Assembly: GCA_016192545.1 (NCBI GenBank)
Contig: JACPTX010000018.1
Coordinates: 1-53,891 of the forward strand
DNA from: Candidatus Omnitrophota bacterium
Lineage (GTDB): Bacteria > Omnitrophota > Gorgyraeia > Aquiviventales > Aquiviventaceae
Length of the DNA stretch: 53,891 nucleotides
Direction: 5' to 3'
Within the stretch, counting starts at the first letter, position 1; each line of letters starts with the position of its first letter. Both the position numbers and the translations under genes were made by a program. Positions 3,136 through 53,455 of the stretch are shown one piece after another. The notes beneath the pieces were generated by a model, which made no database searches, had not been told where the DNA came from, and saw only the letters and a program-made list of their open reading frames with translations.

Positions 3136-3477
3136 ATGGGACGATCAGTCAAGAAAGGGCCGTTCGTCGACGATCATCTGATGGAGAAAGTCCAGAAGGC
3201 GCGCCAGACGAACGACCGCAAACCGATCAAGACGTGGTCGCGCCGCTCGACCGTCACGCCGGATTTCGTCGGCCTGGCCTTCATGATTCACAACGGCAGG
3301 ACGTTCCAGACCGTCTACGCGACCGAGAACATGGTCGGCCACAAGCTGGGGGAATTCGCGCCGACCAGGGTCTTCCGCAAGCACGGCGGCGTGAAGAAGG
3401 CCGCGGCGCCCGGCGCCCCGACAGCCGTCGGGGCGGCGGCTCCTGCCGCGGCCCCTGCCGCGTCGGCTGGGAAGTGA
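3136..3477 (+). CDS. rpsS: 30S ribosomal protein S19 with Ala/Pro-rich C-terminal extension
   Basis: [19 protein letters not shown]...[11 protein letters not shown]. The tail contains the PTAVG palindrome. Confidence 0.96.
3416..3433. repeat. 18-bp palindrome CCCCGACAGCCGTCGGGG, read in frame as P-T-A-V-G, in the rpsS tail
   Basis: Direct reading. The same element occurs at 6406, 8686, 22498 and 40764, with an expanded variant at 30541. Confidence 0.9.
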
Positions 3478-6381: not shown

Positions 6382-7007
6382 TGGCCGCGGCGACGGCCCC
6401 CCAGACCCCGACAGCCGTCGGGGGGGTCGGGGCTGCGGCGGGACCCAGGCCGAGGCTGTCGGAGCGCTATCAGCGGGAGTTGGTTCCGGCCCTGATGGCG
6501 CAGTTCAAGCACACCAACCGGCTGGCGGTCCCCCGCCTGACCAAGATCGTGCTCAATATCGGCTGCGGCGAGGCCGCGCACGACGCCAAGATCCTCGAGG
6601 AGGTCCAGCGGAATCTGGCGACGATCAGCGGGCAGCGGCCGATCGTCACGCGGGCCAAGAAGGCCGTCTCGAACTTCAAGATCCAGGAAGGCGATCCGGT
6701 CGGCTGCAAGGTGACCCTGCGGCGCCGGCGGATGTACGAATTCCTGGACCGCCTCGTGAGCATTGCGCTGCCGCGCATCCGCGACTTCCGGGGGCTGTCG
6801 GCCAAGTCGTTTGATGCGAGCGGCAACTACAGCTTCGGCATCCGGGAGCTCTCGATGTTCCCCGAGCTGCATCCGGATGACCTGCACTACCCGATGGGGA
6901 TGGACGTGGTGATTGCGACGACGGCTCCGAGTCCCCAGGAAGCCCGGGCGCTCCTGGAAGGGTTCAAGATGCCCTTTGAGAAGGCGGCGAAAACCGAACA
7001 GTCGTGA
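6381..7007 (+). CDS. rplE: 50S ribosomal protein L5 with N-terminal extension
   Basis: ...[37 protein letters not shown]... ATG 6381 overlaps the rplX TGA. The extension contains the PTAVG palindrome. Confidence 0.92.
6406..6423. repeat. 18-bp PTAVG palindrome in the rplE N-terminal extension
   Basis: CCCCGACAGCCGTCGGGG, read as PTAVG. Confidence 0.9.
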
Positions 7008-8265: not shown

Positions 8266-8628
8266 CAGACCAGTCAGAGAACGCTCGGCCGGTTGAACCG
8301 CCACCGGCGCATCCGCAAGCGGCTCATGGGCCTGCCGGACCGGCCCCGCCTGTCGGTGTTCCGCAGCCACAAGCATCTGTACGCCCAGCTCATCAACGAC
8401 TACGAGAACCGGACGCTGTTCAGCTGCTCCACCCAGGTCGAGGCCCTGCGCGCGCAGTCCACGCGGGGCGGGACGATCGCGGCGGCGGATCAGTTGGGCC
8501 GCGTGGTCGCGCAGGAAGCGATCAAGCGCGGGATCCAGCAGGTGGTCTTCGACCGCGGCGGCTACCAGTATCATGGGCGCGTCAAGGCGCTGGCTGAAGC
8601 GGCCCGGCAGGGCGGGTTGCAATTTTGA
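8260..8628 (+). CDS. rplR: 50S ribosomal protein L18
   Basis: [42 protein letters not shown]. Confidence 0.94.
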
Positions 8629-9281
8629 TGGGAGCTGAGATGACACCCCCCCAGGCACCAACGCCAACACCCACACCAGCGCCGGCCCCGACAGCCGTCG
8701 GGGCGCCGCCGTCATTCAGAGGCCGCCGGCCTCAACGGCGCGGCGGAGGGCCGCGGCGAGGAGGATTTCAGCAAGGCGGCGCGGGGGGGCAGCAGAGCCC
8801 CTATATGGAAAAGCTGATCAGCATCAACCGCGTCGCCAAAGTCCATAAGGGCGGCAAGCGCCTGGCGTTCAACGCGCTGGCGGTCGTCGGGGACGGACAG
8901 GGCCGCGTGGGGGTGGCGCTGGGCAAGGCGAATGAGGCCTCGGACGCCATCCGCAAAGGCTTCGCCAGAGCGCAGCAGCAGATGGTGACGATCGTGCTGA
9001 AGGGCCGCACCATTCCGCATGAGGCCGTCGGCAAGTACGATGCCTGCAGGGTGCTCCTCAAGCCGGCCAGTCCGGGAACCGGCATCATCGCCGGGGGGCC
9101 GGTGCGGGCGATCTGCGAAGCCTGCGGGATCCGCGACATTCTGACGAAGAGCCTGGGATCCAGCAACGCCATCAACCTGGCGAAAGCGACGGTGCTGGGC
9201 CTGACGTCGCTGCAGTCAGCCGAGACGATCCAGCAGCGCTGGAAATCCCCCAGTGAAGCGCTGGATGAGGATGAGCAATAA
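8628..9281 (+). CDS. rpsE: 30S ribosomal protein S5 with long Pro/Gly/Arg-rich N-terminal extension
   Basis: ...[37 protein letters not shown]... Exact start is uncertain (ATG 8628 or 8640). Confidence 0.92.
8686..8703. repeat. 18-bp PTAVG palindrome in the rpsE N-terminal extension
   Basis: CCCCGACAGCCGTCGGGG, read as PTAVG. Confidence 0.9.
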
Positions 9282-9284
9282 CCC

Positions 9285-9820
9285 ATGAACATCGCCTCGA
9301 TTCCTGCTGTGCCTGGCGCCCGCAAGCGGCGCAAGCGGGTGGGGCGCGGGATCGGCTCCGGCCATGGCAAGACCTCGACCCGCGGGCAGAAGGGCCAGCG
9401 CGCCCGGACCGGCTCGCGCAAGCGGCCGGGGTTCGAGGGCGGCCAGACCCCGCTGATCCGCAAGCTGCCCAAGCGCGGCTTCAGGCGCAAGGCCACGGGC
9501 CGTGCGCGCATCCGCGAAATCGTGAACCTCGAGCAGCTGAACCGCTTCAGCGACGGCCAGCGTGTGACGCCGGAGGCGCTGAGGGAGTCCGGCCTGATCA
9601 AGGACACGGCGCACGAGGTGAAGCTGTTGGGCGACGGCGCGCTCTCCAAGCGGCTGACGATCGCCGTGCATCTCGCCAGCGAGTCGGCCAAGGCCAAGGT
9701 GACGCAGGCCGGCGGAACCGTCGAGCTCCTTGACAAGACAAGGACATCCCAGGAAGGTTCAAGGTTCAAGGGTCAAGGTTCAGGGCCAGAACCTCGAGCC
9801 TCGAACCTCGAGCCTCGAAC

Positions 9821-14416: not shown

Positions 14417-14433
14417 GAGGGGTCTGACCCCTC
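14417..14433. repeat. Single GAGGGGTCTGACCCCTC element (half copy) between rpsD and rpoA
   Basis: GTTCTTGAGGGGTCTGACCCC matches the right half of the unit at 30859-30879. Confidence 0.8.
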
Positions 14434-17101: not shown

Positions 17102-18225
17102 TGGCCTACGACGTGGTCTTCATTCCAGGCGACGGGATCGGGCCGGAGGTGGCGGACGCCGCCCGCCGCTGTCTGGAGGCCACCGGGGTGACGTTCTCGT
17201 GGCGGGAGCACATCGCGGGCGAGGCGGCCATCGCCAAGTTCGGCACCCCCCTGCCGGACGAGACGCTGAAGGCCATCCGCGAGACGGGGGTGGCGATCAA
17301 GGGGCCGATCACGACGCCGATCGGGAAGGGGTTCCGCTCGGTGAACGTGGCGCTGCGCAAGCAGCTGGACCTGTTCGCCTGCGTGCGCCCCTGCCGTTCG
17401 TATGAAGGCGTGCGCGCGCCGGTCAAGGACGTCAATCTCCTCATCGTGCGTGAGAACACCGAAGATCTCTACGCCGGCATCGAGTTCGCCTCCGGCTCCA
17501 AAGAGGCGTCCCAGCTGATCAGGCAGATCAAACAATGGACGGACCAACCTCTGCGGGAGGAGTCGGGGATTTCCATCAAGCCGATTTCGGCTGCGGCGAC
17601 GGAGCGCATCGTGCGGTTCGCGTTCGAGTATGCCATCCGGCACGGGCGCAAGAAAGTCACGGCGATCCACAAGGCGAACATCATGAAGCACACGGATGGG
17701 CTCTTCATGGAGACCTCCCGCCGCGTCGCGAAGGGCTACGAGGGCAGGGTCGCCTTCGAGGACCGGCTGGTGGACGCGACCTGCATGCAGCTCGTCCTGC
17801 GGCCGCAGGAGTTCGACGTCCTGGTGCTGCCCAATCTCTACGGCGATATCCTGTCGGACCTGTGCGCCGGCCTGGTGGGAGGCCTGGGGGTGGCCCCGGG
17901 GGCGAACATCGGCGAGCGCACCGCGGTCTTCGAGGCGGTGCATGGCAGCGCGCCGAAGTATCAAGGCAAAAATAAGGTGAACCCGGCCGCCATGATTCTC
18001 TCGGGCATGATGATGCTGGAGCATCTGGGCGAGCGGGACGCGGCGCGGCGGCTGGAGCAGGCGGTCCGGGCGGTGCTGCAAGAGGGCCGGCACGTCACCT
18101 ATGATCTGAAGCCGACCCGGGATGACCCGACCGCCGTCGGTACGCGGGAAATGGCCGATGCTATTATCGCCACCATGAAACGGGGTCAAACCCCTTCTGA
18201 CAAAAAGGGGTCAGACCCCTTCTGA
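17101..18225 (+). CDS. icd: Isocitrate dehydrogenase (isocitrate/isopropylmalate dehydrogenase family)
   Basis: [11 protein letters not shown]...[21 protein letters not shown]...[10 protein letters not shown]. The last ~14 codons and the stop lie inside GGGGTCWGACCCC elements. Confidence 0.78.
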
Positions 18226-18257
18226 AACTCTTCTCTCAACAACCGGGGTCAGACCCC
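18182..18257. repeat. Three GGGGTC(A/T)GACCCC-family 13-mers at the icd/lipA boundary
   Basis: 18182-18194 (variant GGGGTCAAACCCC), 18207-18219, 18245-18257. Confidence 0.85.
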
Positions 18258-20449: not shown

Positions 20450-21583
20450 ATGGCAGGCCGCCGGCTGTTGCTCATGCATGTCACGACGAGCTCCGGCCAC
20501 CACCATGCCAGCCGGGCGATCGCCCAGGCCCTCCAGCGGCTCGACCCTGCCTGCCAGATCATCAACGTGGACGCGTTCGACTACACGAGCCGCTTCGTCC
20601 GCTGGGCGATCCAGCGTTCCTACCACTCGCTGATCCGCCATTACCCCAACGTCTGGGAATACCTCTACGATAACCCGGAGATCCACCGGCACACGCAGCG
20701 CATCCGCAATCTCCTCCATCGCTACCACACCCGCAAGCTCCGCCGGCTCCTCGAGACGGTCCAGCCCCACGCCATCGCCTGCACGCAGGCCTTTCCCTGC
20801 GGGATGGTGGCGGACTTCAAGCTTCACCGCGGGCTCCACATCCCGCTCGTCGGGATCCTCACCGACTACGCCCCCCACCTGTACTGGCTCCACGATACGA
20901 TTGACGCCTATGTGGTGCCGGCCCATGAGCTCAAGGAGCGGTTCCTGTCCTACGGGGTGCCGGAGGACCGGCTCCGCGTGTACGGGATTCCGGTGGAGCC
21001 GCGCTTCCTGGATCCGGTCGACCGCCGGGCGGTCTACGCGGAGTTCGGGCTGGAGCCGGACCAGCCCGTCGTGCTCATCATGGGCGGGGGCAGCGGCTTC
21101 GGGCCGATGCGCGAAACGATGCAACACCTGGATGCGCTAGAGGCGCCCTGTCAGCTCGTCGTGTTGGCGGGGACCAACCGCGCGCTCCTGGACTGGTTCT
21201 CCCGCCAGCGCTTCCGGCATCCCGTCCACGCCTTCGGCTATGTGGAGGCCGTGCCGCAGCTGATGGAGATCGCCAGCCTCATCATCACCAAGCCCGGCGG
21301 CCTGACGACCGCCGAGGCGCTGGCCAAGCACCTGCCGATGGTGATCCTCAGTCCCATCCCCGGCCAGGAGATGTGCAACGCGCGCTACCTACTGGACCAG
21401 GGCGCGGCGATCCAGTTGGATGGGCCCCAGTCCGTCGGCCGCCACGTGGGTCGGCTGCTGCGGGATCCTCAGGCGCTGCAGGCCGTCCGGGAGCGCGCCG
21501 CGGCCATCGCCCACCCGGACTCGGCGGCGCAGACCGCGCAGCTGTTGTTGGAGCTGGCGGCCCGGCATCGGAACGGTCCATGA
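20450..21583 (+). CDS. Diacylglycerol glycosyltransferase-like protein (MGDG-synthase / GT28 family)
   Basis: LLLMHVTTSSGHHHASRAIAQAL...ITKPGGLTTAEALAKHLPMV. ATG 20450 lies within track ORF 19493..21583. Confidence 0.7.
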   Translation: MAGRRLLLMHVTTSSGHHHASRAIAQALQRLDPACQIINVDAFDYTSRFVRWAIQRSYHSLIRHYPNVWEYLYDNPEIHRHTQRIRNLLHRYHTRKLRRLLETVQPHAIACTQAFPCGMVADFKLHRGLHIPLVGILTDYAPHLYWLHDTIDAYVVPAHELKERFLSYGVPEDRLRVYGIPVEPRFLDPVDRRAVYAEFGLEPDQPVVLIMGGGSGFGPMRETMQHLDALEAPCQLVVLAGTNRALLDWFSRQRFRHPVHAFGYVEAVPQLMEIASLIITKPGGLTTAEALAKHLPMVILSPIPGQEMCNARYLLDQGAAIQLDGPQSVGRHVGRLLRDPQALQAVRERAAAIAHPDSAAQTAQLLLELAARHRNGP

Positions 21584-21653: not shown

Positions 21654-22538
21654 AGCCCGGCATGGGCGTATGCCGCCATCCAGGGGCTGACGGCCGTCCT
21701 GCCCCGGTCCTCCTGCGAATGGATCGCCGAGCGGCTGGCGGATGCGCAGTGCCGGCGGGCCGCGCATGACCGCGAGGCCGTCCGCGCCAACCTCTCGCTT
21801 CTCCTCAACCGGCGTCTGCCGGCGGATGCGCCGGAGATTCGCGAGGTGTTCCGCCAGTTCGCGCAGTATCTGCTCGAATTTCTGAGCGCGCACCGCGCGC
21901 GCAGCTCGAGCAGGGTCGAGGAGACCGCGGCCGTGACGGCCGGGCTGCGGCCCGGGCAGGGCGCCGTCATTCTGAGCGCGCACCTGGGCAACTGGGAGCT
22001 TGGGGCGGTCGCGCTGCATCGGGCGGGATGCCGGATGAGCGTGGTGGCGCTGCCGCACGGGAACCCGCGCGTCAATGAGATCTTTGAGGGCCAGCGCCGC
22101 CGCTGCGGGGTCGAGGTGATTCCGCTGGCCGCGCGGGGCTCGACGGCGCGGTGTCTGCAGCGGCTGCGCGAGGGCTGGCTGCTCGGCATCCTGGGCGACC
22201 GGGAATTCGGCCGCAACGGCATCCCCGTGACGTTCCTGGACCGGGTGTGCCTCCTGCCGAAGGGGCCGGCGCTGTTGAGCCTCCGCAGCGGGGCGCCGGC
22301 CGTGCCGGTGTTCGTGATGCGCGAAGGCCCGTGGCGCTTGCGGTTCCATGTCGAGCCGCCCATCCCGCCCTCGTTGGCCCGCGGCAAAGCGGATCCGGTG
22401 CAGTGCCTGACGCAGCTCTATGCCCAGAGCATCGAGCGCATGGTCCGCCGGTTCCCGACCCAGTGGGTGATGTTCCAGCCGTTCTCCTCGATCACGGCCC
22501 CGACGGCCGTCGGGGCGGCCGTGTCGGAAGCTCGCTAA
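21648..22538 (+). CDS. Lysophospholipid / lipid A biosynthesis (LpxL-HtrB family) acyltransferase
   Basis: GAVILSAHLGNWELGA...GDREFGRNGIPVTFL, the family-typical H(x)4-like region. Confidence 0.65.
   Translation: MSSPAWAYAAIQGLTAVLPRSSCEWIAERLADAQCRRAAHDREAVRANLSLLLNRRLPADAPEIREVFRQFAQYLLEFLSAHRARSSSRVEETAAVTAGLRPGQGAVILSAHLGNWELGAVALHRAGCRMSVVALPHGNPRVNEIFEGQRRRCGVEVIPLAARGSTARCLQRLREGWLLGILGDREFGRNGIPVTFLDRVCLLPKGPALLSLRSGAPAVPVFVMREGPWRLRFHVEPPIPPSLARGKADPVQCLTQLYAQSIERMVRRFPTQWVMFQPFSSITAPTAVGAAVSEAR
22498..22515. repeat. 18-bp perfect palindrome CCCCGACGGCCGTCGGGG (PTAVG) near the acyltransferase C-terminus
   Basis: Direct reading: APTAVGAAV. Confidence 0.9.
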
Positions 22539-24869: not shown

Positions 24870-27503
24870 ATGATGGGCATACGAAGGGCGGGTCTGTCCG
24901 TACTCCTGAGTCTGATGCTGAGTCTCACTGCCGGGTCGACAAGCGGGTTCGCGAAGGAGCCCGGGTCCGCCCCCGCCGTCCCGGCGGGGCGCTCGCCGTT
25001 CGGCGCGGTCCGGCAGACCCTGCTCGACAACGGCCTGGCCGTCGTCTGGGAGCAAGACCCTCGCCAGGGCCTCGTCGCCATTGAGGTCCGGATCCTCGGC
25101 GGCCTGCGCGGGGAGGGCCGCTTCCTGGGCAGCGGCATCACCCACGCCATCGAGCACATGCTCTTCAAGGGCACGACCTCCCGCGCGCCCGGCACCATCG
25201 AGCAGGAAGTCCGTCGCTACGGCGGCACCATCAACGCCTTCACCTCGCACGATTACACCGGCGTCAACCTCTTCGTGGAGTCCCGCTTCCTCAAGGACGC
25301 GCTGGGGATGCTGGCCGACATCCTCCAGCATGCGACGTTTCCCGAGGAGGAGTTCGCCAAGGAACGGCCGGTCATCGTCTCCGAGATCCAGATGAATCTC
25401 GATGACCCGGAGCGCCGCGTGCATCAGCTGTTCTGGAACCGCCAGTTCCTCCTCCACCCCTACCGCCATCCCATCCTCGGCTACCAGCCGCTGCTGGAGC
25501 GGCTGACCGCCGAGGATCTGCGGAGCTTCTACGTCGCCCAGTACGTCCCGAACAACATCGTCCTGGCCTGCGTCGGCGACCTGGACGGCGCGGCGTTCCC
25601 CGCGCTCGTCCGCGAGGTCTTCGGGGCCTGGCCGCGCGGCGCGCCGTACACGGTGCCGGTGGCTGAGGAGCCGCCGGCCGTCAGCGTCAAGCAGGCGCAG
25701 GAAGAGCTGCCGGTGCAGGCGGCCTATACCATCATCGGCTTCCCCTCGGTTCGGCTGGCGCATCCGGATCTCTACGCCCTGGATGTGCTCGCCAGCGTGC
25801 TGGGGCACGGGCGCAGCTCGCGGCTGCACGAGGCGCTGGTGCGCGTCAAGCGGGTCGCCCACGGCGTCGGCGCAGGGAACTACACGCCGCTGGATCCCGG
25901 CGCGTTCACGGTCTCGATGCGCACGGATGGCGGGCGCGCCGCCGAAGCGGTGGAGGCGGCGCTGCAGGTGGTGGAGGAGGTCGCCCGCAAGGGCGTGTCG
26001 GAGGCCGAGCTGCAGAAGACGAAACGGCAGGTCACCGCGGAATTCATCTTCCGCCATCAGACCGTCGAGTCGAAAGCGGATGATTACGCCAGCTCCTATG
26101 CGCTCACCGGCGATCCGACCTATTCGAATCGTTATGTGCAGGGCATTTCGCAGGTGACGGCCGAGCAGGTCCAGCAGGCCGCCCGCCGGTATCTGGACCG
26201 CGCGAAGATGACCGTGGTCACGATCCAGCCCTCAGGCACCGCGCCGGCTCGTCCCTCCGAGGCCGTCTGGGCGCCGCCGACCGCCACGAAGACGGTGCTG
26301 CCCAACGGCCTGACCGTGCTGCTGAGCGAGCAGCGCCGATTGCCGATGGCGGCCATTGTCGCGGTCAGCCGCGGCGGGGTGCGCGTCGAAACGGACGGCA
26401 CGCAGGGGCTGTCCAATCTCGTGAGCCAGCTCTTGGTGAAGGGGACCAGCCGCAAGACCGCGACGCAGATCGCGACGCAGGTCGAGTCGCTGGGCGGCAT
26501 CCTGGAGCCGTTCAGCGGGCGCGACGGGCTGGGGCTGTCCCTGCAAGTGCTGGCGGAGGATCTGCCGGTCGGGCTGGACCTGGTGCATGAGCTGCTCACC
26601 GACGCGGCGTTTCCGAAGGACGAACTCGAGCTGCAGCGGCAGCTGATCCTCAAGGAGCTCGACGCGCGGGAGGATGATGTCTTTGACGTCGGCGGCCGTC
26701 TGCTGCGCCGGACCCTGTTCACCACGCATCCGTACCGGTTTGATCCCTTGGGGAGCAAGGAGGCGGTGACCCGCCTCACGCGCGAGGAGTGCCTGGCCTT
26801 CGCGCGCCGGTGGCTGGTCGCGAAGAATCTCGTCGTGGCCGTCTTCGGGGACCTCCAGCCCGACGCGGTGCAGCGCGCGATCCGGCAGCGCTTCGGCAGC
26901 ATGCCGCCCGGCGATGCGCCGTGGCCCCAGACGCTGTCCGACAGCCCGCTCGACGGCGCGCGGCAGGCCTCGCAGGTCCTGCCGAAAGAGCAGACCGTCA
27001 TCTTCATCGGATTCCGCGGCACCCAGGCGACCGCCGAGGACCGCGACGCGCTCGACGTGCTGACCTCGATTTTGTCCGGCATGAGCGGGCGGCTGTTCCA
27101 GGCGGTCCGCGAGCAGCAGGGGCTGTCCTACACGCTGGGCGCCTTCAACGTGCCGGGATGGGATCCCGGCTATGTGGCGGTGTATGCCGCGACCCGCCCC
27201 GGCGAGCGCGCCCAGGTGCTCGACACCATCCAGACGCAGCTGCGCGAGGTCGTGGAGCGCGGCGTCACCGGCGAGGAGTTGGACCAGGCTCAGCGCTATC
27301 TCATCGGCCATCACCGGATGGAGCTCCAGCATCTGGGGAGCCTGGCGCGCCGCGCCGCGCTCGATGAGCTCTACGGGCTGGGGGCGGATGCGTGGACGAC
27401 ATACGAAGCGCGCATCAACGCGGTCACGGCCGAGCAGGTCCAGGAGGCGGCCCGCCGCTATCTGCAATGGTCGCATCGGGCGGAGGTCGTCGTGGCCCCG
27501 TGA
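24870..27503 (+). CDS. Secreted tandem M16 (pitrilysin-family) zinc peptidase
   Basis: 877 aa with a signal-like N-terminus. HAIEHMLFKG (HxxEH), then a second M16-like half. Confidence 0.85.
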   Translation: MMGIRRAGLSVLLSLMLSLTAGSTSGFAKEPGSAPAVPAGRSPFGAVRQTLLDNGLAVVWEQDPRQGLVAIEVRILGGLRGEGRFLGSGITHAIEHMLFKGTTSRAPGTIEQEVRRYGGTINAFTSHDYTGVNLFVESRFLKDALGMLADILQHATFPEEEFAKERPVIVSEIQMNLDDPERRVHQLFWNRQFLLHPYRHPILGYQPLLERLTAEDLRSFYVAQYVPNNIVLACVGDLDGAAFPALVREVFGAWPRGAPYTVPVAEEPPAVSVKQAQEELPVQAAYTIIGFPSVRLAHPDLYALDVLASVLGHGRSSRLHEALVRVKRVAHGVGAGNYTPLDPGAFTVSMRTDGGRAAEAVEAALQVVEEVARKGVSEAELQKTKRQVTAEFIFRHQTVESKADDYASSYALTGDPTYSNRYVQGISQVTAEQVQQAARRYLDRAKMTVVTIQPSGTAPARPSEAVWAPPTATKTVLPNGLTVLLSEQRRLPMAAIVAVSRGGVRVETDGTQGLSNLVSQLLVKGTSRKTATQIATQVESLGGILEPFSGRDGLGLSLQVLAEDLPVGLDLVHELLTDAAFPKDELELQRQLILKELDAREDDVFDVGGRLLRRTLFTTHPYRFDPLGSKEAVTRLTREECLAFARRWLVAKNLVVAVFGDLQPDAVQRAIRQRFGSMPPGDAPWPQTLSDSPLDGARQASQVLPKEQTVIFIGFRGTQATAEDRDALDVLTSILSGMSGRLFQAVREQQGLSYTLGAFNVPGWDPGYVAVYAATRPGERAQVLDTIQTQLREVVERGVTGEELDQAQRYLIGHHRMELQHLGSLARRAALDELYGLGADAWTTYEARINAVTAEQVQEAARRYLQWSHRAEVVVAP

Positions 27504-28036: not shown

Positions 28037-29095
28037 ATGTGGGCGATGGCGTTCGTGCTCGTGGCGGTGGGGGTGCTCGCCTATCTCTTGGTGAGCCGAG
28101 CCGCCATGTTGAAGGCCGCCGCGGAGCAGCTGAACGCCGAGCTCAAGCAATTTAAGGAGGGCGGATTCGACCAGCTGATTGCGGAGAAGCTGGCGCTCCT
28201 GACCAACAAGGCGATGCAGGAGCTCGAGAGCCGGGAAAAGGCGATCCGGCAGGTTCAGCAGGACTTGCTCGAGGAAGGGAAAAAGGCGACGGCGGCCGCG
28301 GAAAAGTTCAAGCAGGACTTCGGCGCCGTCACGACCGAGATCCACAGTCTTCAGGAGCTGCAGGGCAAGGTCGGGGAGCTGAACGATTTGCTGAAGCCGC
28401 AACAGCTGCGCGGGGAGCTGGGCGAGGTGATCGTGCGCAACCTCCTGGCGGACAAACTGCCGAGGCAGTACGAGGAGGACTATGCGTTTTCGGACGGCAA
28501 GAGGGTCGAGTTCGTCGTCCGGATCAACGACCGACTCATCCCGGTGGACTCCAAGCTGCAACTGGAAGACTTTAAGCGTTTACGCGAAGCGGAGGAGCCC
28601 CAGCGTCAGGCCTATCGGGCGGAATTCAAGCGAAAGGTCAAGCAGAAGATTGATGAGGTGAAGGCGTACATCCGTCCGGAGGAGGGGACCATGAATTTCG
28701 CGCTGATGTTCATCCCCTCCGAGGCGGTGTTCTACGAGCTGATCGCCAACAAGGATTTCCTTGAGGGCGGCGGGCTGTACGAGTACGCGCAGGAGCAGCG
28801 CGTCTTCCTGACCTCGCCGCTGACATTCTGGGTGTACTTGACGACGATCGCCCAGGGGCTGAAGGGTTTGGAGATCGAGCGCCGGGCCGAGGACGTGCTC
28901 TCGGCGTTGCAGGCGCTCGCCGCGGAGATCCGCAACTTCTCGCAGGATGAATTCCGCAAAGTGGGCGTGCACCTGCGCAACGCGACCGCGCAGTACGATG
29001 AGGCTGAACGCACGCTTCGCACGGTTGAGCAGGGGCTCGGGACACTGGAGCGGGTGGAGTCGTCTCCGGCCCAACAGGAAGGAGCCACACGATGA
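28037..29095 (+). CDS. rmuC: DNA recombination protein RmuC
   Basis: N-terminal TM and coiled coil, then GELGEVIVRNLL...VEFVVRINDRLIPVDSK...FALMFIPSEAVF. Confidence 0.85.
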   Translation: MWAMAFVLVAVGVLAYLLVSRAAMLKAAAEQLNAELKQFKEGGFDQLIAEKLALLTNKAMQELESREKAIRQVQQDLLEEGKKATAAAEKFKQDFGAVTTEIHSLQELQGKVGELNDLLKPQQLRGELGEVIVRNLLADKLPRQYEEDYAFSDGKRVEFVVRINDRLIPVDSKLQLEDFKRLREAEEPQRQAYRAEFKRKVKQKIDEVKAYIRPEEGTMNFALMFIPSEAVFYELIANKDFLEGGGLYEYAQEQRVFLTSPLTFWVYLTTIAQGLKGLEIERRAEDVLSALQALAAEIRNFSQDEFRKVGVHLRNATAQYDEAERTLRTVEQGLGTLERVESSPAQQEGATR

Positions 29096-30333: not shown

Positions 30334-30827
30334 GCAGCATGGACAAACGACGATCCTCCGAACGGGACGCGTTCCGGCTCATCGAGGAGATGCTGCAGTT
30401 GATGGAGAGCCGCGGCCTCGTCGAGCTCGAATTGGAACACCAGGGGATGCGGCTGCGCCTGAAGAAAGCGGGGCAGTCCGGCCCGCAGCTGGTGGAGTAC
30501 GTCACCGGCATGCCCCAGCCCCCGACAGCCTCGACGGCTTCCCCGACGGCCCCGAAGGCCGTCGGGGCCGCGGAGGAATCCGGCCGGCGGGTCATCATCA
30601 AATCGCCGATGGTCGGCACCTTCTACCGCGCCCCGGCGCCTGACGCGCCGCCGTTCGTCGAGGTGGGGCAGGACGTGGACGCCGGCCAGGTGGTGTGCAT
30701 CATCGAAGCGATGAAGCTGATGAACGAGATCAAGTCGGAGGTCGCCGGCCAGGTCATGGAAGTGCTCATCGAGAACGGGGAAGCCGTGGAGTTCGGCCAG
30801 CCCCTCTTCGCCCTCGAGCCGCGCTAA
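30330..30827 (+). CDS. accB: Biotin carboxyl carrier protein of acetyl-CoA carboxylase
   Basis: IIEAMKLMNEI biotinyl-lysine motif. The Pro/Ala linker contains an expanded PTAVG-type palindrome. Confidence 0.94.
   Translation: MSSMDKRRSSERDAFRLIEEMLQLMESRGLVELELEHQGMRLRLKKAGQSGPQLVEYVTGMPQPPTASTASPTAPKAVGAAEESGRRVIIKSPMVGTFYRAPAPDAPPFVEVGQDVDAGQVVCIIEAMKLMNEIKSEVAGQVMEVLIENGEAVEFGQPLFALEPR
30541..30567. repeat. Expanded PTAVG-family palindrome CCCCGACGGCC-CCGAA-GGCCGTCGGGG in the accB linker
   Basis: 11-bp arms, read as PTAPKAVG. Confidence 0.8.
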
Positions 30828-30829
30828 TC

Positions 30830-30881
30830 GGGGTCAGACCCCGTCAGTTGAGACCATCGTTCTTGAGGGGTCTGACCCCTT
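30830..30881. repeat. Composite GGGGTCAGACCCC...GGGGTCTGACCCC element, inverted copy of 155-204
   Basis: 49 of 50 nt identical to the reverse complement of 155-204. Starts 3 nt after the accB stop. Confidence 0.88.
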
Positions 30882-30890
30882 TTCTGAGTC

Positions 30891-33789: not shown

Positions 33790-34282
33790 CTCCAGCCGTC
33801 ACAAAATCCATTCGGCCGCGTCGTTGGCTCCCATCGTCCGCCGTCTGCAGCGGCGTGGCCGGCGGGTGGTGTTCGCCAACGGCTGCTTCGACCTCCTGCA
33901 TGTCGGCCACGTGACGCTGCTGGAGCGCGCCAGGCGGCTGGGTGATGCGCTCATCGTCGCCCTCAACAGCGACCGCTCGGTCCGCCGGCTGAAAGGCCCG
34001 GGCCGGCCGGTGGTGCGCCAGCAGGACCGCGCCCGGCTGCTCGCGGCGCTGGCGTGCGTGGACTACGTGACGATGTTTGATGAGCCGACCCCGCACCGCC
34101 TGCTCGCGCGCCTGCGGCCCGATGTGCTGGTGAAGGGAGCGGACTGGTCCCTGCGCGACGTGGTGGGCCGGGACCTCGTCAAGCGCGTCGTGCGCATCGC
34201 ACTGGTCAACGGCTATTCCACCACCGACCTGCTGGCCCGTCTCGCGTCACGCCGTCAGAAAAGAGGGGTCAGACCCCTCTGA
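33782..34282 (+). CDS. rfaE2: D-beta-D-heptose 1-phosphate adenylyltransferase (RfaE domain II type cytidylyltransferase)
   Basis: VVFANGCFDLLHVGHVTLLERA...ALNSDRSVRRLKG. The stop lies between two GGGGTCWGACCCC copies. Confidence 0.82.
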   Translation: MYSSSRHKIHSAASLAPIVRRLQRRGRRVVFANGCFDLLHVGHVTLLERARRLGDALIVALNSDRSVRRLKGPGRPVVRQQDRARLLAALACVDYVTMFDEPTPHRLLARLRPDVLVKGADWSLRDVVGRDLVKRVVRIALVNGYSTTDLLARLASRRQKRGVRPL

Positions 34283-34299
34283 TGATGGGGTCTGACCCC
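34265..34299. repeat. GGGGTCAGACCCC / GGGGTCTGACCCC pair spanning a gene junction
   Basis: Copies at 34265-34277 and 34287-34299. The upstream TGA (34280-34282) and the downstream ATG (34282 or 34285) lie between them. Confidence 0.85.
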
Positions 34300-37651: not shown

Positions 37652-38148
37652 CGACCGGGATGGAGCGGCTCTGGGCCCCGTGGCGCAGCGAGTACTTCGC
37701 CCGTCTGAATCGTCCCGGCTGCATCTTCTGCCGCGCGCGGACGGGGCGCAGGGACCGGGCCGCGCACGTCCTCTACCGCGGCCGGCGGGTTTTCTGTCTG
37801 TTGAACCGCTATCCCTACAATACGGGGCATCTGATGGTCGCGGTCAACCGGCACGTCGGGGATCTCGCCCGGCTGACCGCGGCCGAGCATGCCGAGCTCA
37901 TGCAGACCGCCGCCCGGATGGTCAGCGTCCTGCGCAGGGCCTTCAAGCCCCAGGGATTCAACGTCGGCGTGAACCTCGGCGCCCCGGCCGGCGCCGGGAT
38001 TCCCGGTCATCTCCACATGCACGTCGTGCCGCGCTGGACCGGGGACACGAACTTCATGCCGGTCCTCGCGCACACCAAAGTCATGTCCCTCTCCCTGGAT
38101 GCCGTCTACGACCGGCTGACGTCGTCGCTGCGAGGGAGGCGCCGATGA
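37648..38148 (+). CDS. HIT-family nucleotide hydrolase/transferase
   Basis: CIFC...LLNRYPYNTGHLMV...GAGIPGHLHMHVVPRW histidine triad. ATGA overlap with the ATPase. Confidence 0.85.
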   Translation: MTTGMERLWAPWRSEYFARLNRPGCIFCRARTGRRDRAAHVLYRGRRVFCLLNRYPYNTGHLMVAVNRHVGDLARLTAAEHAELMQTAARMVSVLRRAFKPQGFNVGVNLGAPAGAGIPGHLHMHVVPRWTGDTNFMPVLAHTKVMSLSLDAVYDRLTSSLRGRRR

Positions 38149-39332
38149 GCGTGGCCCACGAGCCCCCCGTGCTCCTCGCCAGCCGCGAAGAGCTGGAAGC
38201 CCGCGAAGAACAGTGGCTGGCGCCCTCTGCCATGAAAAGCCGCCAGTCGCGCGGCCGCGCCCATGCGGAGCCGGAGCACCCCTTCCGGACCGCGTACCAG
38301 CGCGACCGCGACCGGATCATCCACTCGACGGCGTTTCGCCGTCTCGAATACAAGACCCAGGTGTTCGTCAACCACGAGGGGGACTACTACCGCACGCGGC
38401 TGACGCACACGCTGGAGGTCGCCCAGATCGCCGTGGCGATCGCCCGCGCCCTGCGCCTCAACGAGGATCTAGTGGAGGCCGTCGCGCTCGCCCACGACCT
38501 GGGGCATCCGCCGTTCGGGCACGCCGGGGAAGACGCCCTGCGGGAGCTCATGGAAGGCCGCGGCGGCTTCGAGCATAATCTCCAGGGCCTGCGGATCGTC
38601 GACCTGCTGGAGGAGCGGTATCCGGCGTTTCCGGGCCTCAACCTCACCTGGGAAGTCCGGGAGAGCATCAACAAGCACCGCACGCCCTACGACGAGCCGG
38701 GCCTGCAGATCGCGCTGGATCCCGCCGTCTCGCCGCTCCTGGAAAGCCAGGTGGCGGATGTGGCGGACGAGATCGCCTACGATAATCACGACCTGGATGA
38801 CGGCCTCACCTCCGGGCTCCTCAAGGAAGACGACCTGCGGGACCTCGCGCTCTGGGAAGAGGCGCGGCAGGCCGTGGAGGCGAGCGCCCCGCGCGCGACC
38901 CCGGAGATCCGCAAATACCAAATCATCCGGACGCTCATCAACCGGCAGGTGACCGAGTTGGTCCAGGAATCGGCCCAGCGTCTCAAGCAGCACCATATCG
39001 CCTCCCTCGAGGACGTGCGCGCCTGTGCGGAGCGGCTGATCGCCTTCAGCCCCGCCCTGCAGGAGCTGCGCAACCCGTTGAAGGCGTTTCTGTGGACCCG
39101 GCTGTACCACCATTACCGCGTGGCCCGGATGGCCGACAAGGCCAAGCGGTTCATCACGGAGCTGTTCGGGCTGTACGTCAACAAGCCGCAGCAGCTGCCG
39201 AACACGACCCGGCTGCGCATCGAGCGCGGCGAGGATCCGCACCGGGTCGTGTGCGACTACATCGCGGGGATGACCGATCGCTATTGCCTGGAAGAATACC
39301 GGAAGCTCTTCGATCCGTTTGAGCGGGTGTAG
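38145..39332 (+). CDS. dgt: dGTP triphosphohydrolase-like HD-domain protein
   Basis: FRTAYQRDRDRIIHSTAFRRLEYKTQVF...THTLEV...AHDLGHPPFGH. ATGA overlap with the HIT gene. Confidence 0.88.
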   Translation: MSVAHEPPVLLASREELEAREEQWLAPSAMKSRQSRGRAHAEPEHPFRTAYQRDRDRIIHSTAFRRLEYKTQVFVNHEGDYYRTRLTHTLEVAQIAVAIARALRLNEDLVEAVALAHDLGHPPFGHAGEDALRELMEGRGGFEHNLQGLRIVDLLEERYPAFPGLNLTWEVRESINKHRTPYDEPGLQIALDPAVSPLLESQVADVADEIAYDNHDLDDGLTSGLLKEDDLRDLALWEEARQAVEASAPRATPEIRKYQIIRTLINRQVTELVQESAQRLKQHHIASLEDVRACAERLIAFSPALQELRNPLKAFLWTRLYHHYRVARMADKAKRFITELFGLYVNKPQQLPNTTRLRIERGEDPHRVVCDYIAGMTDRYCLEEYRKLFDPFERV

Positions 39333-40192: not shown

Positions 40193-43153
40193 GTGCCTGC
40201 CCTTGATCTGGCTCAAACTCCGGAGCGCCTGGAGGAGCGGCTTCTCGCCGACCTGACCGAGCCCCAGCGCGAGGCGGTGACCCACACCGAGGGCCCCCTC
40301 CTCATCATCGCCGGCGCCGGGACCGGCAAGACCACGGTCATCACCCGCCGCATTGCGTGGCTCATCGCCACCAAACGCGCCCGCCCGGAGGACATCCTCG
40401 CCCTGACCTTCACGGACAAGGCCGCCGCCGAGATGGAAGAGCGGGTGGACGTCCTGGTGCCGTACGGCTACCTGGACATCCGGCTCTCGACCTTCCACGC
40501 CTTCGGCGACCGCGTCCTGCGCGAGCACGCGCTCGAGGCCGGGCTCGCCTCCGAGGTCCGCGTCCTGTCGAAAGCGGAGCAGGTGGTGTTCCTGCAGCAG
40601 CACCTGTTCGAGCTGCCGCTCACACGGCTCCGCCCCCTCCAGGACCCCGCCCGCTACCTCGAAGCCCTGGCGACGGTGATGTCCCGGGCCAAGGATGAGG
40701 CGGTGACGCCCGACGAGTTCCTCGCGCTGGCGGCGGCCCGGGAAGCCCAGGCCGCGGCGGCCCCCCCGACGGCCGTCGGGGTGCACAGCGACGCCGCCCT
40801 GGCCCGGGAACTGGCCGAGTGTTACGCCGCGTACCACCGGCTGCTGCGCGAGGCCAAGGCGGTGGATTTCGGCGGGCAGATTCTCCTGACCATCTGGCTG
40901 CTGGAACAGCATCCCGAGCTGCTCGCCGACTTCCGGCGGCGGTTCCGCTACATCCTCGTGGACGAGTTCCAGGACACCAACTTCGCCCAGTTCCGCCTCC
41001 TGCAGCTGCTCGCGACGCCGGAATCGAACATCACCGTCGTCGCGGACGACGACCAGAGCATCTATAAGTGGCGCGGGGCCGCCGTCAGCAACGTCCTCAA
41101 GTTCCTCGAGCACTACCGGCAGGTGCGGCGCGTCGTCCTCACCGAGAATTTCCGCTCCAGCCAGCCGATCCTCGACGCCGCCTACCGGCTCATCCGGTTC
41201 AACGACCCGGACCGCCTGGAGGTGAAGGAGGCCATCAACAAGCGCCTCACGGCGATGTGTCCGCGCGAGGCGAAGGCGCCGCAGTTCGCCGTCTTCGACA
41301 CGGTCTCCAGCGAGGCCGACCGGGTCGCCCGCCGGATTCAGACGGAGGTCGAGGCGGGCCGCCGGGCGCCGGGGGATTTCGCCATCCTGGTGCGGACCAA
41401 CCGCGACGCGGAGCTGTTCCTGCGCGCGCTCAACGTCTGCGGCCTGCCATGGCGGTTCAGCGGCACGACCGGCCTGTTCGCCCGCGAGGAGGTCAAGATG
41501 CTCGTTTCCTGCCTGCGGACGCTGGCCGACCCGGAGGACAGCCTCAGCTGGTATCACGTCATCAGCTCCCCGCTCTACGCCTGCCCGATGCCCGACCTGA
41601 TCGCCTGCCTGGCGCAGGCCACCCGCGCGAACACGAGCCTGCGGCTGGTGTTGGAGCAGGCCCCGACCGAGGTCGGGGCGCCGGCGGTGTCTGACCAGGC
41701 CCGCGAGGTCATCCGGCGGTTCCTCGACGACGTGGCGCGCCTGCAGGACGCCTCGCGGACGCTGTCGCCTGGACAGCTGCTGTACCGCTGGCTCACGGAC
41801 ACCGGCTGGCTCAAGCGGCATGCGGCCGTGGAGGATGCGGAGGAGGTCGAGCAGTTGCAGTCGGTGGCAAGGTTTTTCGACCACCTGTTCCGGTTCGAGG
41901 GCCTGGGGGGCAACCGCCTGCCGGAACTGATGCGGTCGCTGGACCTGCTGCAGGCCCTGGGCGAATCCGCGGCGCAAGAACCGGACGCGGCCTCCATGGA
42001 CCACGTCAACGTCCTGACCATTCACAAGGCCAAGGGCCTGGAATTTCCGGTCGTGTTCCTGGTCGGGCTGGTGCAGGGGAGGTTCCCGACGACGCTGCGG
42101 CGCGACGCGATTGAGCTGCCCGAGCCGCTCATCAAGGACATCCTGCCGTCGGGCGACTACCACCTGCAGGAGGAGCGGCGGCTCTTCTACGTCGGCATGA
42201 CGCGGGCCAGGGAAGAGCTCCACCTCACCGCCGCCTACGACTACGGCGGCAAAACCCTGCGCAAGGTCAGCCAGTTCGTCCTGGAAGCGCTCGGCCTGGA
42301 GAGCCCGGCCCCGCCGGCCAAGGCGGCCTCGGCCCGGGAACGCCTGAGCCGGGCCAAGCCGCCGAGCGAAGCGAGTCCTGAGCGGAAGCGAAGGACGCCC
42401 GCGGTCCTTCGCCTGCCGGAGCCGCTGCGCCTGGACGCGCACGGCCTCGACGACTATCTGACCTGTCCGCTGAAGTTCCGCTACAGCCATGTGTTGCGGC
42501 TGCCGATCATGCGCCACCATCTTGTCATCTACGGCGCGGCCCTCCACAAGGCCGTGGAGCAGTTTTTCCGCCGCCGGCTGCAGGGCCAGGCGATGAGCGA
42601 GGAAGAGCTGCTGCAGGTCTTCGAGCACGCGTGGCGCTCGGAGGGTTTCCTGACGCGCGAGCACGAAGCGCAGCGGCTGGCGCAGGGGCGGGCAGTCCTC
42701 GCGCGTTTTTACGCCGAGCAGCAACAGCGCCCCGAGCAGCCCACGCTCATCGAGGAGAAGTTCAGCATCCCGTTGGACGACCTCGTGCTGGTCGGCCGGT
42801 GGGACCGGGTGGACCGGCGCGGCGAGGAGGCGGTCATCATCGATTACAAGTCCTCCGACGTGACCGAGCAGGCCGAGGCCGACCAGCGGGTCCGGAAGTC
42901 GCTGCAGATGCAGGTCTACGCGCTGGCCTGGACGCTGATTCACGGCCGGCTCCCGTCGCGCCTGGAGCTGCGGTTTTTGGAGACCGGCCTCGTCGGGCAG
43001 ACGGCGTTCACCGACGAGGATTTGGAAAAGACCAAGGCGCGGATCAGGGAAGCGGCCCGCGGGATCCGCGCGCTCGAATTTCATCCCCAGCCCAGCGAGT
43101 TCGCCTGCCACTGGTGCGCCTACCAGTCCATCTGCCAGTACGCCGTGACGTAA
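40193..43153 (+). CDS. UvrD/PcrA-type superfamily 1 helicase fused to a PD-(D/E)XK Fe-S (Cas4/AddB-like) nuclease domain
   Basis: AGAGTGKT Walker A, ILVDEFQDTN, TIHKAKGLEFP, YVGMTRA. C-terminal Cys pattern is C(x)n..CHWCAYQSIC. Confidence 0.85.
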   Translation: MPALDLAQTPERLEERLLADLTEPQREAVTHTEGPLLIIAGAGTGKTTVITRRIAWLIATKRARPEDILALTFTDKAAAEMEERVDVLVPYGYLDIRLSTFHAFGDRVLREHALEAGLASEVRVLSKAEQVVFLQQHLFELPLTRLRPLQDPARYLEALATVMSRAKDEAVTPDEFLALAAAREAQAAAAPPTAVGVHSDAALARELAECYAAYHRLLREAKAVDFGGQILLTIWLLEQHPELLADFRRRFRYILVDEFQDTNFAQFRLLQLLATPESNITVVADDDQSIYKWRGAAVSNVLKFLEHYRQVRRVVLTENFRSSQPILDAAYRLIRFNDPDRLEVKEAINKRLTAMCPREAKAPQFAVFDTVSSEADRVARRIQTEVEAGRRAPGDFAILVRTNRDAELFLRALNVCGLPWRFSGTTGLFAREEVKMLVSCLRTLADPEDSLSWYHVISSPLYACPMPDLIACLAQATRANTSLRLVLEQAPTEVGAPAVSDQAREVIRRFLDDVARLQDASRTLSPGQLLYRWLTDTGWLKRHAAVEDAEEVEQLQSVARFFDHLFRFEGLGGNRLPELMRSLDLLQALGESAAQEPDAASMDHVNVLTIHKAKGLEFPVVFLVGLVQGRFPTTLRRDAIELPEPLIKDILPSGDYHLQEERRLFYVGMTRAREELHLTAAYDYGGKTLRKVSQFVLEALGLESPAPPAKAASARERLSRAKPPSEASPERKRRTPAVLRLPEPLRLDAHGLDDYLTCPLKFRYSHVLRLPIMRHHLVIYGAALHKAVEQFFRRRLQGQAMSEEELLQVFEHAWRSEGFLTREHEAQRLAQGRAVLARFYAEQQQRPEQPTLIEEKFSIPLDDLVLVGRWDRVDRRGEEAVIIDYKSSDVTEQAEADQRVRKSLQMQVYALAWTLIHGRLPSRLELRFLETGLVGQTAFTDEDLEKTKARIREAARGIRALEFHPQPSEFACHWCAYQSICQYAVT
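40764..40781. repeat. 18-bp perfect PTAVG palindrome inside the helicase
   Basis: CCCCGACGGCCGTCGGGG, read as PPTAVGV. Confidence 0.9.
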
Positions 43154-45244: not shown

Positions 45245-45321
45245 CGGGGCGTGGCTCAGCTTGGTAGAGCGCCTGAATGGGGTTCAGGAGGTCCCGAGTT
45301 CAAATCTCGGCGCCCCGACCA
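45245..45321 (+). tRNA. tRNA-Pro (anticodon GGG), CCA encoded
   Basis: CGGGGCG/CGCCCCG acceptor, GCTC/GAGC D stem, CCTGA-ATGGGGT-TCAGG anticodon arm, CCGAG-TTCAAAT-CTCGG T arm, then A-CCA. Confidence 0.92.
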
Positions 45322-45342: not shown

Positions 45343-45379
45343 CAGGAGGTCCCGAGTTCAAATCTCGGCGCCCCGACCA
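45343..45379 (+). repeat. Exact 37-nt duplicate of the tRNA-Pro 3' part (anticodon-stem 3' strand through CCA)
   Basis: 45343-45379 is identical to 45285-45321. The two copies are separated by 21 nt. Confidence 0.9.
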
Positions 45380-47818: not shown

Positions 47819-47852
47819 GGGGTCTGACCCCTTTTTAAAGGGGTCTGACCCC
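47819..47852. repeat. Two GGGGTCTGACCCC elements with A/T flanks (AAAAGGGGTCTGACCCCTTTTT), probable terminator after thrC
   Basis: Copies at 47819-47831 and 47840-47852. The first is flanked by an A-run and a T-run. Confidence 0.75.

Positions 47853-49170: not shown

Positions 49171-53455
<4,285 letters not shown>

Follow-up and report, generated by a model that had tools for sequence, protein, structure and literature searches.

The 53,891-nt stretch analysed here (positions 1 to 53,891 of the forward strand of contig JACPTX010000018.1, assembly GCA_016192545.1, from a Candidatus Omnitrophota bacterium; hereafter the window) contains seven copies of a short palindromic repeat with the consensus (G)CCCCGAC-RGCC-GTCGGGG(C), in which arms of 7–8 bp enclose a 4-nt centre. 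The repeat is best read as a lineage-specific, dispersed family of 18–20 bp stem-loops, in kind an 'intragenic stem-loop sequence' resembling the repetitive extragenic palindromes (REPs), because a GC-rich stem of 7–8 bp, a 4-nt centre, dispersed and species-specific occurrence and the presence of other hairpin repeats nearby make up the anatomy of REP-like stem-loop sequences. As judged from codon choice and orthologue comparison, the identity of the copies resides in the DNA and not in a conserved peptide, and the dominant pattern at their sites is the overwriting of a pre-existing, partly similar and unconstrained stretch, not the insertion of an 18-bp unit.

Copies, anatomy and reading frame of the palindrome

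The motif CCCCGAC-N4-GTCGGGG occurs seven times in the 54-kb window (five exact and two variant copies; 0 expected), corresponding to a density of about one copy per 8 kb. Coding sequence makes up 94% of the window; nearly all genes lie on the plus strand, and the G+C content is 67%, with a GC3 near 0.9. The 18-mer CCCCGACRGCCGTCGGGG is present as an A-form at positions 3416, 6406 and 8686, each in the plus orientation, and as a G-form, which is a perfect palindrome, at 22498 and 40764. These five positions had been listed in an earlier note on this DNA, and the exact 18-mer was found at each of them; dinucleotide shuffles of the window yielded no match. The earlier description was thus accurate, and statistically the feature is unambiguous. 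A search with up to three mismatches added two copies, one at 30550 in accB (CCCCGAAGGCCGTCGGGG) and one at 41661 in a helicase gene (CCCCGACCGAGGTCGGGG), the latter being a seventh member absent from the earlier list. The accB copy carries one arm mismatch, and the copy at 41661 has intact arms and a different loop, CGAG. The centre sequences seen are thus AGCC, GGCC, CGAG and, in a short allele of the L5 gene described below, GTCC. The G-form contains CGGCCG and GGCC, both of which are broken in the A-form.

The spacing of the arms is fixed. In a search that allowed up to one mismatch per 7-bp arm and spacers of 0–12, exactly seven sites had a spacer of 4, namely the seven copies, and each other spacer yielded 0–3 weak matches. 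The mismatch spectrum of the 18-mer is bimodal, with five sites at 0 mismatches, one at 1, none at 2 and one at 3, and with numbers equal to the Markov background at four or more mismatches. In five of the seven copies, the palindrome is longer by one G...C pair, resulting in a 20-mer; this pair is the sole flank preference of the copies, and it both lengthens the palindrome and gives Ala codons. When the copies were folded with their flanks (38–63 nt), GC-rich stems of 7–10 bp were predicted, the minimum free energies lying between -18 and -37 kcal/mol; at several sites the palindrome reaches into the flanks. All seven copies lie inside open reading frames (ORFs) as singletons, without inverted dimers, and none was found in the 2,993 intergenic bases of the window. 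Neither a conserved flank sequence, nor an unpaired GTAG or CGTC tag on either side, nor target duplications were detected in the copy flanks. The three A-form copies are neighbours, lying within 5.3 kb in the S10/spc operon.

Other candidate signals did not hold. The window contains 28 perfect palindromes of at least 12 bp, which is close to the composition expectation in a rough calculation, so that a generic palindrome-making process is insufficient to account for the family. Orphan half-sites were considered as decayed copies, as GTCGGGG occurs 23 times against about 8 expected, but these represent ordinary Val-Gly codons. The segment at 18126–18140 of icd, which the earlier note had regarded as a weaker copy, was dismissed as well: CCGACCGCCGTCGG at 18127 shows four mismatches to the 18-mer, and its V-G-T residues belong to the conserved motif VGTRE of isocitrate dehydrogenases (IDHs), as seen in solved structures.

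All copies are located in plus-strand genes and are read as CC CCG ACR GCC GTC GGG G, i.e. Pro-Thr-Ala-Val-Gly (PTAVG). The constant reading claimed previously stood with respect to the frame, which is the same in 7/7 copies, but the two variants read PKAVG (accB) and PTEVG (helicase, 41661). The G-form can be read as PTAVG on either strand, as had been pointed out, and the same is true of the A-form. From codon usage alone, 89% of the occurrences of the G-form and 57% of those of the A-form would be expected in the PTAVG frame. An empirical null was provided by at least 112 scattered matches to the 18-mer in genome contigs of many phyla, with one site per locus; among the matches listed, the PTAVG frame was found in 51% of the sporadic ones from GC-rich genomes, by a crude ORF assignment. 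Because the frame is favoured by codon usage, seven same-frame copies are only weakly surprising, and the frame bias, which the earlier note had proposed to test against expectation and which could be taken as a sign of selection, is largely accounted for. Among the same listed matches, the 18-mer was also seen in several low-GC genomes (33–48% G+C), mostly outside long ORFs; these loci (L003, L009, L022, L044, L047, L052, L091, L098 and L109) include Patescibacteria/Saccharibacteria and metagenome-assembled genomes (MAGs) of Bacteroidota, and two of them are from one Saccharibacteria contig.

The choice of codons points to the DNA itself. In the window genes, ACA accounts for 3.3% of Thr codons and GGG for 32% of Gly codons, and the spelling CCG-ACA-GCC-GTC-GGG is nevertheless found in three copies; the probability of these codons given PTAVG is 0.0014. 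About 3e-5 exact copies are expected in the window from codon usage, and five were observed. As PTAVG is missing from the orthologues and rare codons are common to the copies, the view of the earlier note that this is a DNA element rather than a conserved peptide was upheld. The sharing of the rare ACA in a centre free of constraint and the bimodal mismatch spectrum both indicate that the copies descend from one another, not that they converged on a peptide or a binding site.

These observations also bear on the possibility that the repeat is no feature in its own right but a product of chance in GC-rich low-complexity coding sequence, a selected PTAVG peptide or an assembly artefact. All copies lie in low-complexity A/P/T/G-rich segments, and their frame is the one that codon usage favours, as such an origin would have it. 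The number of exact copies, the use of the same codons across copies (including the rare ACA and the minor codon GGG) and the orthologues without the peptide argue against it, as does the occurrence of the same sequence in independent assemblies. In Logan assemblies of at least 10 runs (SRR121134xx series and SRR4343428), the S5, accB and both helicase copies were identical base for base; the helicase copy at 40764 was identical in four Logan contigs, and the accB Logan contig was identical too. Since independent assemblies agree at 100%, the repeat is not an assembly artefact, and an origin of this whole class is considered highly improbable. Exact look-ups of the S19, L22 and L2 sequences found them not on record, and a cluster look-up gave no added variants.

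Host sites and the sequence overwritten

The seven sites are as follows (BCCP, biotin carboxyl carrier protein).

3416–3433, plus strand: C-terminal tail of ribosomal protein S19 (gene 3136–3477); A-form CCCCGACAGCCGTCGGGG, read A-PTAVG-A at residues 95–99 of 113, family core at residues 1–89.
6397–6432, plus strand: start of ribosomal protein L5 (ATG at 6381); nested CCCCAGAC + CCCCGACAGCCGTCGGGG (6406–6423, A-form) + GG + GTCGGGG.
8686–8703, plus strand: N-terminal extension of ribosomal protein S5; A-form, read A-PTAVG-A at residues 21–25, core from residue 60; the ATG at 8628 overlaps the L18 stop.
22498–22515, strand unassigned: C-terminal tail of an LpxL/PIM-type acyltransferase; G-form, 20 bp with its flanks (GCCCCGACGGCCGTCGGGGC), 21 nt before the stop.
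30520–30567, plus strand: linker of BCCP (accB); 21-nt tandem duplication with left arms at 30520 and 30541, ending in CCCCGAAGGCCGTCGGGG (30550–30567, PKAVG).
40764–40781, strand unassigned: loop 1 of a UvrD/PcrA-type helicase with a PD-(D/E)XK nuclease domain; G-form, read P-PTAVG-V at residues 192–196.
41661–41678, plus strand: loop 2 of the same helicase; CCCCGAC-CGAG-GTCGGGG, read A-PTEVG-A at residues 491–495.

Host genes and conserved cores were placed by NCBIfam. All copies fall outside the family cores and in columns that vary among orthologues, so that their confinement to tails, N-terminal extensions, a linker and variable loops is clear from core boundaries and orthologue alignments alike, in agreement with the earlier note, which had placed them outside conserved cores. 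Local identity at the copies lies at the 6th–14th percentile, although this test is partly circular since the copy itself lowers identity. Closeness to cistron boundaries was not significant (3/7 sites within 65 nt, p = 0.14).

In S19, the palindrome runs to 20+ bp (GCGCCCCGAC...GTCGGGGCG), and the tails of relatives are shorter and unrelated. The L5 copy lies at residue 10, counted from the ATG at 6381, ahead of the core from residue 34; it is flanked by a left arm that is degenerate and by an additional right arm. The public gene call of S5 starts at Met-61 (158 aa), and by that call the copy would lie in a 177-nt spacer. These upstream 177 nt (8628–8805) are, however, conserved in frame with locus L147 of a relative, as well as with S5 proteins from other Omnitrophota that are longer; because the extension is kept in frame in L147, it appears to be translated, and S5 probably starts at the ATG at 8628. 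The acyltransferase core ends at residue 355, and its copy is located at residue 361 of 372 in a non-conserved tail. In accB, the 21-nt tandem duplication brings extra left arms, and the 27-bp segment at 30541–30567 is a variant with 11-bp arms, as previously described, which folds with a 10-bp stem. Loop 1 of the helicase is a variable surface loop, and loop 2 is a second loop of variable length.

Comparison with orthologues suggests that most copies replaced sequence. At loop 1 of the helicase, a segment A-P-x-D-E-R-L is nearly constant in length in about 30 orthologues, and the window protein carries A-P-P-T-A-V-G-V, which is one residue longer; the copy stands in place of P-x-D-E-R-L, and its left end (GCC CC) coincides with the conserved Ala-Pro. 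Because the loop length is nearly constant, this site represents a replacement, not an insertion. At loop 2, the window loop is not longer than in most orthologues. The S5 extension is 2 aa longer in the copy-free L147, in which the P-T codons CCG ACT align with CCG ACA of the copy, and orthologue comparison indicates that the P-T codons were already there before the copy at both the S5 and the helicase sites. Acyltransferase homologues possess unrelated tails of 3–40 residues after the conserved PTQW(L/V)MFQP, with no net 18-bp gain at the copy. In accB, CAG GCC AAG GCC GCT GAG of locus L145 aligns with CCG AAG GCC GTC GGG GCC GCG GAG of the window; the copy contains the ancestral AAG GCC (Lys-Ala), the added part is GTCGGG, and the arm mismatch of this copy results from the ancestral codons lying inside it. 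Length gains were found only at L5, S19 and BCCP, and a difference of 18 bp only at L5, the S19 and BCCP segments being merely longer than in relatives.

The description of the repeat as inserted in frame, and the expectation that alignment of the hosts would reveal five added residues, therefore fit only in part: PTAVG is lineage-specific and the L5, S19 and BCCP segments are longer, but at 4/7 sites (both helicase loops, S5 and the acyltransferase) the residues are not extra, and the accB copy overlaps ancestral codons.

The L5 site is polymorphic. A short allele (L113–L118), 18 bp shorter than that of the window, carries a single copy, CCCCGACGTCCGTCGGGG, which has the loop GTCC and reads PTSVG. 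This allele was found in seven Logan contigs of the sample series named above, and the NCBI contig carries the long allele. The two alleles differ within 6384–6448 by an 18-bp indel, a loop change and one single-nucleotide polymorphism on each side; these differences are confined to about 65 bp, and the rest of the 2.18 kb compared is identical. The L5 palindrome is thus a hot spot of variation.

Such a difference of exactly 18 bp, with the window allele having the appearance of one copy placed in the loop of another that is older and degenerate, would be produced by a miniature mobile palindromic element of the type of Rickettsia palindromic elements (RPEs) or of REPs mobilized by REP-associated tyrosine transposases (RAYTs), pasted as a unit by a transposase and surviving only where the insertion is in frame and harmless. 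The longer S19 tail, L5 extension and BCCP linker, the species specificity of the family, its coexistence with the REPIN-like doublet family GGGGTCWGACCCC described below (REPIN, doublet of REPs forming a hairpin) and the documented existence of intragenic REPs and RPEs are all compatible with such an element. It would nevertheless be expected to add sequence, and no net insertion is observed at the two helicase loops, the S5 extension or the acyltransferase tail, while the accB copy retains ancestral codons. Target duplications, conserved flanks and a GTAG/CGTC tag are lacking, intergenic DNA, where insertion would be least harmful, contains no copies, and no transposase was found among the scanned window proteins (not every ORF) or among the recorded Pfam matches of the syntenic genes of L145. 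The unit of 18–20 bp is also below the size of known REPs (20–40 bp) and RPEs. A mobile element is therefore regarded as a rather unlikely source of the copies.

Lineage specificity and spread of the repeat

Among named relatives, MAGs of Candidatus Omnitrophica/Omnitrophota match L5, S5 and the helicase best, with 55–75% identity. Related loci were searched for the repeat with up to 2–3 mismatches. No copies were found in L145/L146 (22.9 and 21.3 kb syntenic with window positions 29.8–53 kb, with a helicase 85% identical), in L147 (87.7% nucleotide identity across L18-S5-L15), in L119/L120 (93% nucleotide identity at L5) or in L148, L124, L123 and L125 (loci of 5.4–16.8 kb that take in the S10/spc region wholly or partly). 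The repeat is thus missing from more than 50 kb of syntenic DNA of close relatives, and the family appears from these comparisons to be recent and lineage- or species-specific. An L5-based metagenome scan yielded seven loci, none of which carries the repeat, and a scan of viral contigs with the 18-mer gave seven unrelated single matches and no phage link. Rfam identified only two tRNAs in the window, and a full-text literature search for the repeat sequence returned nothing relevant.

The restriction to one lineage bears on a second alternative, namely that the repeat is a DNA motif with a function, maintained by selection or by molecular drive, which would be either a site for a dimeric protein (of nucleoid, segregation or occlusion type, as with parS, Noc-binding sites (NBS) or matS, or as proposed for the cyanobacterial palindrome HIP1) or a sequence resembling uptake signals. 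Invariant arms, a spacing fixed at 4 bp and a free centre are the classic signature of a dimer site, and the density of the repeat is similar to that of the origin-proximal parS cluster of Streptomyces. About one copy per 8 kb would also fit the domain scale of 10–90 kb discussed for HIP1 (PMC5861425), and an origin in situ at poorly conserved positions in a preferred-codon frame is known for uptake sequences (PMC2817400). However, parS, the uptake signal sequence (USS), the DNA uptake sequence (DUS) and HIP1 are shared by whole families or phyla, in contrast to a repeat that is absent from the syntenic DNA of close relatives. The rare ACA common to the unconstrained centres suggests copying between loci, not independent convergence, and the mismatch spectrum has no tail of weaker sites. 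The repeat is unlike canonical parS, of which no site with up to three mismatches was found in the window, and known uptake sequences are non-palindromic and about 8-fold denser. On balance, a motif of this kind seems rather improbable on the sequence comparisons made, although a binding or recombination site that coding DNA tolerates, as suggested in the earlier note, is still a serious competitor.

The spread of the copies is tentatively attributed, as the likeliest mechanism with a probability of roughly 0.45, to templated copying of short patches into quasi-sites, provoked by hairpins or cruciforms, with purifying selection leaving the harmless placements. Starting from copies that are identical as DNA and descended from one another, each new copy would be a short patch templated by an existing one, through gene-conversion-like repair or template switching, and the trigger would probably be the hairpin or cruciform formed by the palindrome. 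The targets would be arm-like sequences, such as GCC CCG AC, within GC-rich stretches coding for Ala, Pro, Thr and Gly. Templated copying into such targets would mostly replace sequence rather than add 18 bp, which is what is usually observed. The same structures render the sites locally unstable, as is seen in the half-site and 21-nt duplications, the nesting and the allelic hot spot. Purifying selection would finally remove copies unless an innocuous frame meets an unconstrained segment, a cause consistent with the distribution found. In the frame Ala-Pro-Thr-Ala-Val-Gly-Ala, all codons are of the preferred type; if selection leaves only this innocuous frame, the constant PTAVG reading would be a by-product and not a function. 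The repeat probably has no role in the host proteins.

Several points weigh against patch copying. The mechanism is deduced from its products, as no conversion event or enzyme was observed, and the sample consists of seven copies in a single 54-kb window. If the repeat were neutral and selfish, copies would be expected in the 3 kb of intergenic DNA, where there are none, unless quasi-sites are missing from the AT-richer spacers. A free centre between conserved arms would also fit a dimeric DNA-binding protein. Simple insertion would explain L5, with its 18-bp polymorphism, as well as S19 and BCCP, which are longer than in relatives. In addition, variable segments often gain or lose bases, so that unchanged length is weaker evidence there than at the length-conserved loop 1 of the helicase.

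It is also conceivable, although rather improbable, that the repeat is a recently evolved, genome-wide and coding-compatible palindromic signal for a lineage-specific dimeric protein that binds or processes DNA, and that it was spread by targeted conversion. Such a signal would have roles such as chromosome organization, DNA uptake or self/non-self marking, and its sequence would have been 'chosen' to be writable as A-PTAVG-A. If so, the repeat would represent a new analogue of HIP1 and USS outside cyanobacteria and proteobacteria, alongside the in-frame heptamer hairpins of valS and rplO described below. The probability remaining beyond patch copying, a mobile element, a functional motif and an origin by chance, peptide selection or artefact is left to mechanisms not considered.

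With respect to significance, very short hairpin repeats can colonize essential, highly expressed genes (those for three ribosomal proteins, BCCP and a repair helicase) of a little-known phylum, mostly by overwriting dispensable protein segments instead of adding to them. Such repeats provide ribosomal proteins with tails and extensions peculiar to one lineage, cause errors in start-codon calls (the S5 call is 60 residues too short) and flag hot spots of strain-level variation in metagenomes. If templated patch copying is the true mechanism, the family would join REP-like repeats to motifs of the HIP1/USS type that arise by substitution in situ and would provide a natural system for hairpin-provoked ectopic conversion.

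Neighbouring repeats and comparison with known systems

A second palindromic family, GGGGTCWGACCCC, is represented in the window by 12 copies (0.13 expected), which are located at gene ends and in intergenic gaps and are mostly paired (155–204, 14419–14431, 18182–18257, 30830–30879, 34265–34299 and 47819–47852). Some copies are followed by T-runs and are terminator-like, and the C-terminus of icd reads through two copies. Of the doublets of about 55 bp at 150–206 and 30826–30882, each is the reverse complement of the other, with the 23-nt spacer included, and they look like REPINs or miniature inverted-repeat transposable elements. GGGGTCWGACCCC was absent from the relatives used for comparison of the 18-bp repeat, including L145, L124 and L148.

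In-frame hairpins of about 63 bp composed of heptamers, (GTTCAAG)4, 5–6 nt and (CCTCGAA)4, were found at 9754–9820 (end of rplO) and at 51365–51426 and 52565–52625 (valS), encoding about 21 aa (...SNLEPRT) twice in valyl-tRNA synthetase (ValRS) and once in the tail of L15. At the same ValRS loop, the hairpin of L145 is built from other heptamers, (AGTGGTC)n...(AGTCACC)n. Heptamer hairpins of relatives are located at 21505–21575, 20850 and 22208 of L145, at 13181 of L124 and at 8671 of L148. Their architecture and position are conserved and their sequence is lineage-specific, and they may be more unusual than the 18-bp repeat.

The tRNA-Pro(GGG) gene (45245–45321) has its 3' half, AGGAGGTCCCGAGTTCAAATCTCGGCGCCCCGACCA, repeated about 25 nt downstream (45343–45379), a duplication of the type found at integrase att sites. 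The 3' end of this tRNA, GCCCCGAC (followed by CA), is the same as the palindrome's left arm in its extended form, which was judged coincidental. Nearly every gene across the 54 kb lies on the plus strand, and the cumulative GC skew peaks at about 36–38 kb without a change in gene orientation. The longest ORF for dGTP triphosphohydrolase (37680–39332) includes an N-terminal extension of about 170 residues, and two M16-type peptidase halves, YfmH/YfmF-like, are fused in one 877-aa ORF (24870–27503). An RmuC-family gene is present at 28037–29095, with no link to the repeats shown; the E. coli member of this family keeps inversions at short inverted repeats in check.

Among known systems, RPEs had been named in the earlier note as a parallel. 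The resemblance stands as an analogy, in that palindromic repeats occur in frame within unrelated protein genes, are tolerated in permissive parts of the proteins and, in the repeat described here, are predicted to form a stable hairpin (GC-rich stems of 7–10 bp). It does not extend to length, taxon, tag or insertion signature. RPEs are restricted to Rickettsia and are extra segments relative to orthologues, whereas the present repeat is not extra at 4/7 sites. The RPE unit has a family-specific sequence and measures tens to about 150 bp (roughly 100–150 bp in RPE-1), in contrast to 18–20 bp here, without a tag and with flanks that are not conserved. RPE-4 and RPE-6 are CGTC-tagged REPs (PMC3733652).

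The REP super-families (GTAG/CGTC) share with the repeat their short GC-rich stem-loops, with stems of 5–13 bp and loops of 2–20 nt (PMC3733652). REPs are often species-specific, as the repeat is, with several families per genome and a fraction inside ORFs. Intragenic REPs of many species lie at N- or C-termini, in linkers and in loops, and repair genes, those of UvrD type among them, stand out as hosts (Di Nocera et al. 2013, PMC3733652); their counts are highest in Opitutus terrae (PVC group) and Rickettsia conorii (PMC3733652). Unlike REPs, the repeat has neither an unpaired GTAG/CGTC tag nor a CCA tail, and it is 18–20 bp long instead of the usual 20–40 bp. REPs are mostly extragenic and commonly form inverted dimers, as in REPINs, whereas all seven copies here are intragenic singletons, most of which replace sequence rather than add to it. 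REPs also reach high numbers, more than about 100 per genome, and flank the gene of a RAYT, a Y1 transposase.

HIP1 (GCGATCGC) of cyanobacteria reportedly spreads by substitution and not by insertion, a view attributed to Robinson and co-workers in 1997. Like the repeat, it is a short palindrome; it is strongly over-represented, both within and between genes, and no peptide or RNA role has been found for it (PMC5861425). It differs in being 8 bp long, phylum-wide, present about once per gene and tied to orphan methyltransferases (PMC4390886); the repeat is 18–20 bp long, occurs about once per 8 kb and has 0 copies in the relatives L145/L146, L147, L148, L119/L120 and L123–L125. USS and DUS are likewise exact intragenic DNA motifs at poorly conserved residues and in preferred-codon frames, a position and frame that the repeat shares, and they raise the frequency of the peptides they encode (PMC2817400). 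They are, however, non-palindromic 9–12-mers that occur about once per kb, family-wide and linked to competence, whereas the repeat is sparser, at about one copy per 8 kb, and does not occur in relatives. The parS, NBS and matS sites are conserved in sequence and position among relatives, in contrast to the repeat, which is absent at orthologous positions.

In summary, judged by its lack of tags, of dimers, of extragenic copies in the window and of an insertion signature at most sites, the repeat is neither an RPE nor a member of the GTAG/CGTC REP super-families. Intragenic REP-like repeats are already known; what is new here is an untagged, very short, intragenic form in Omnitrophota.

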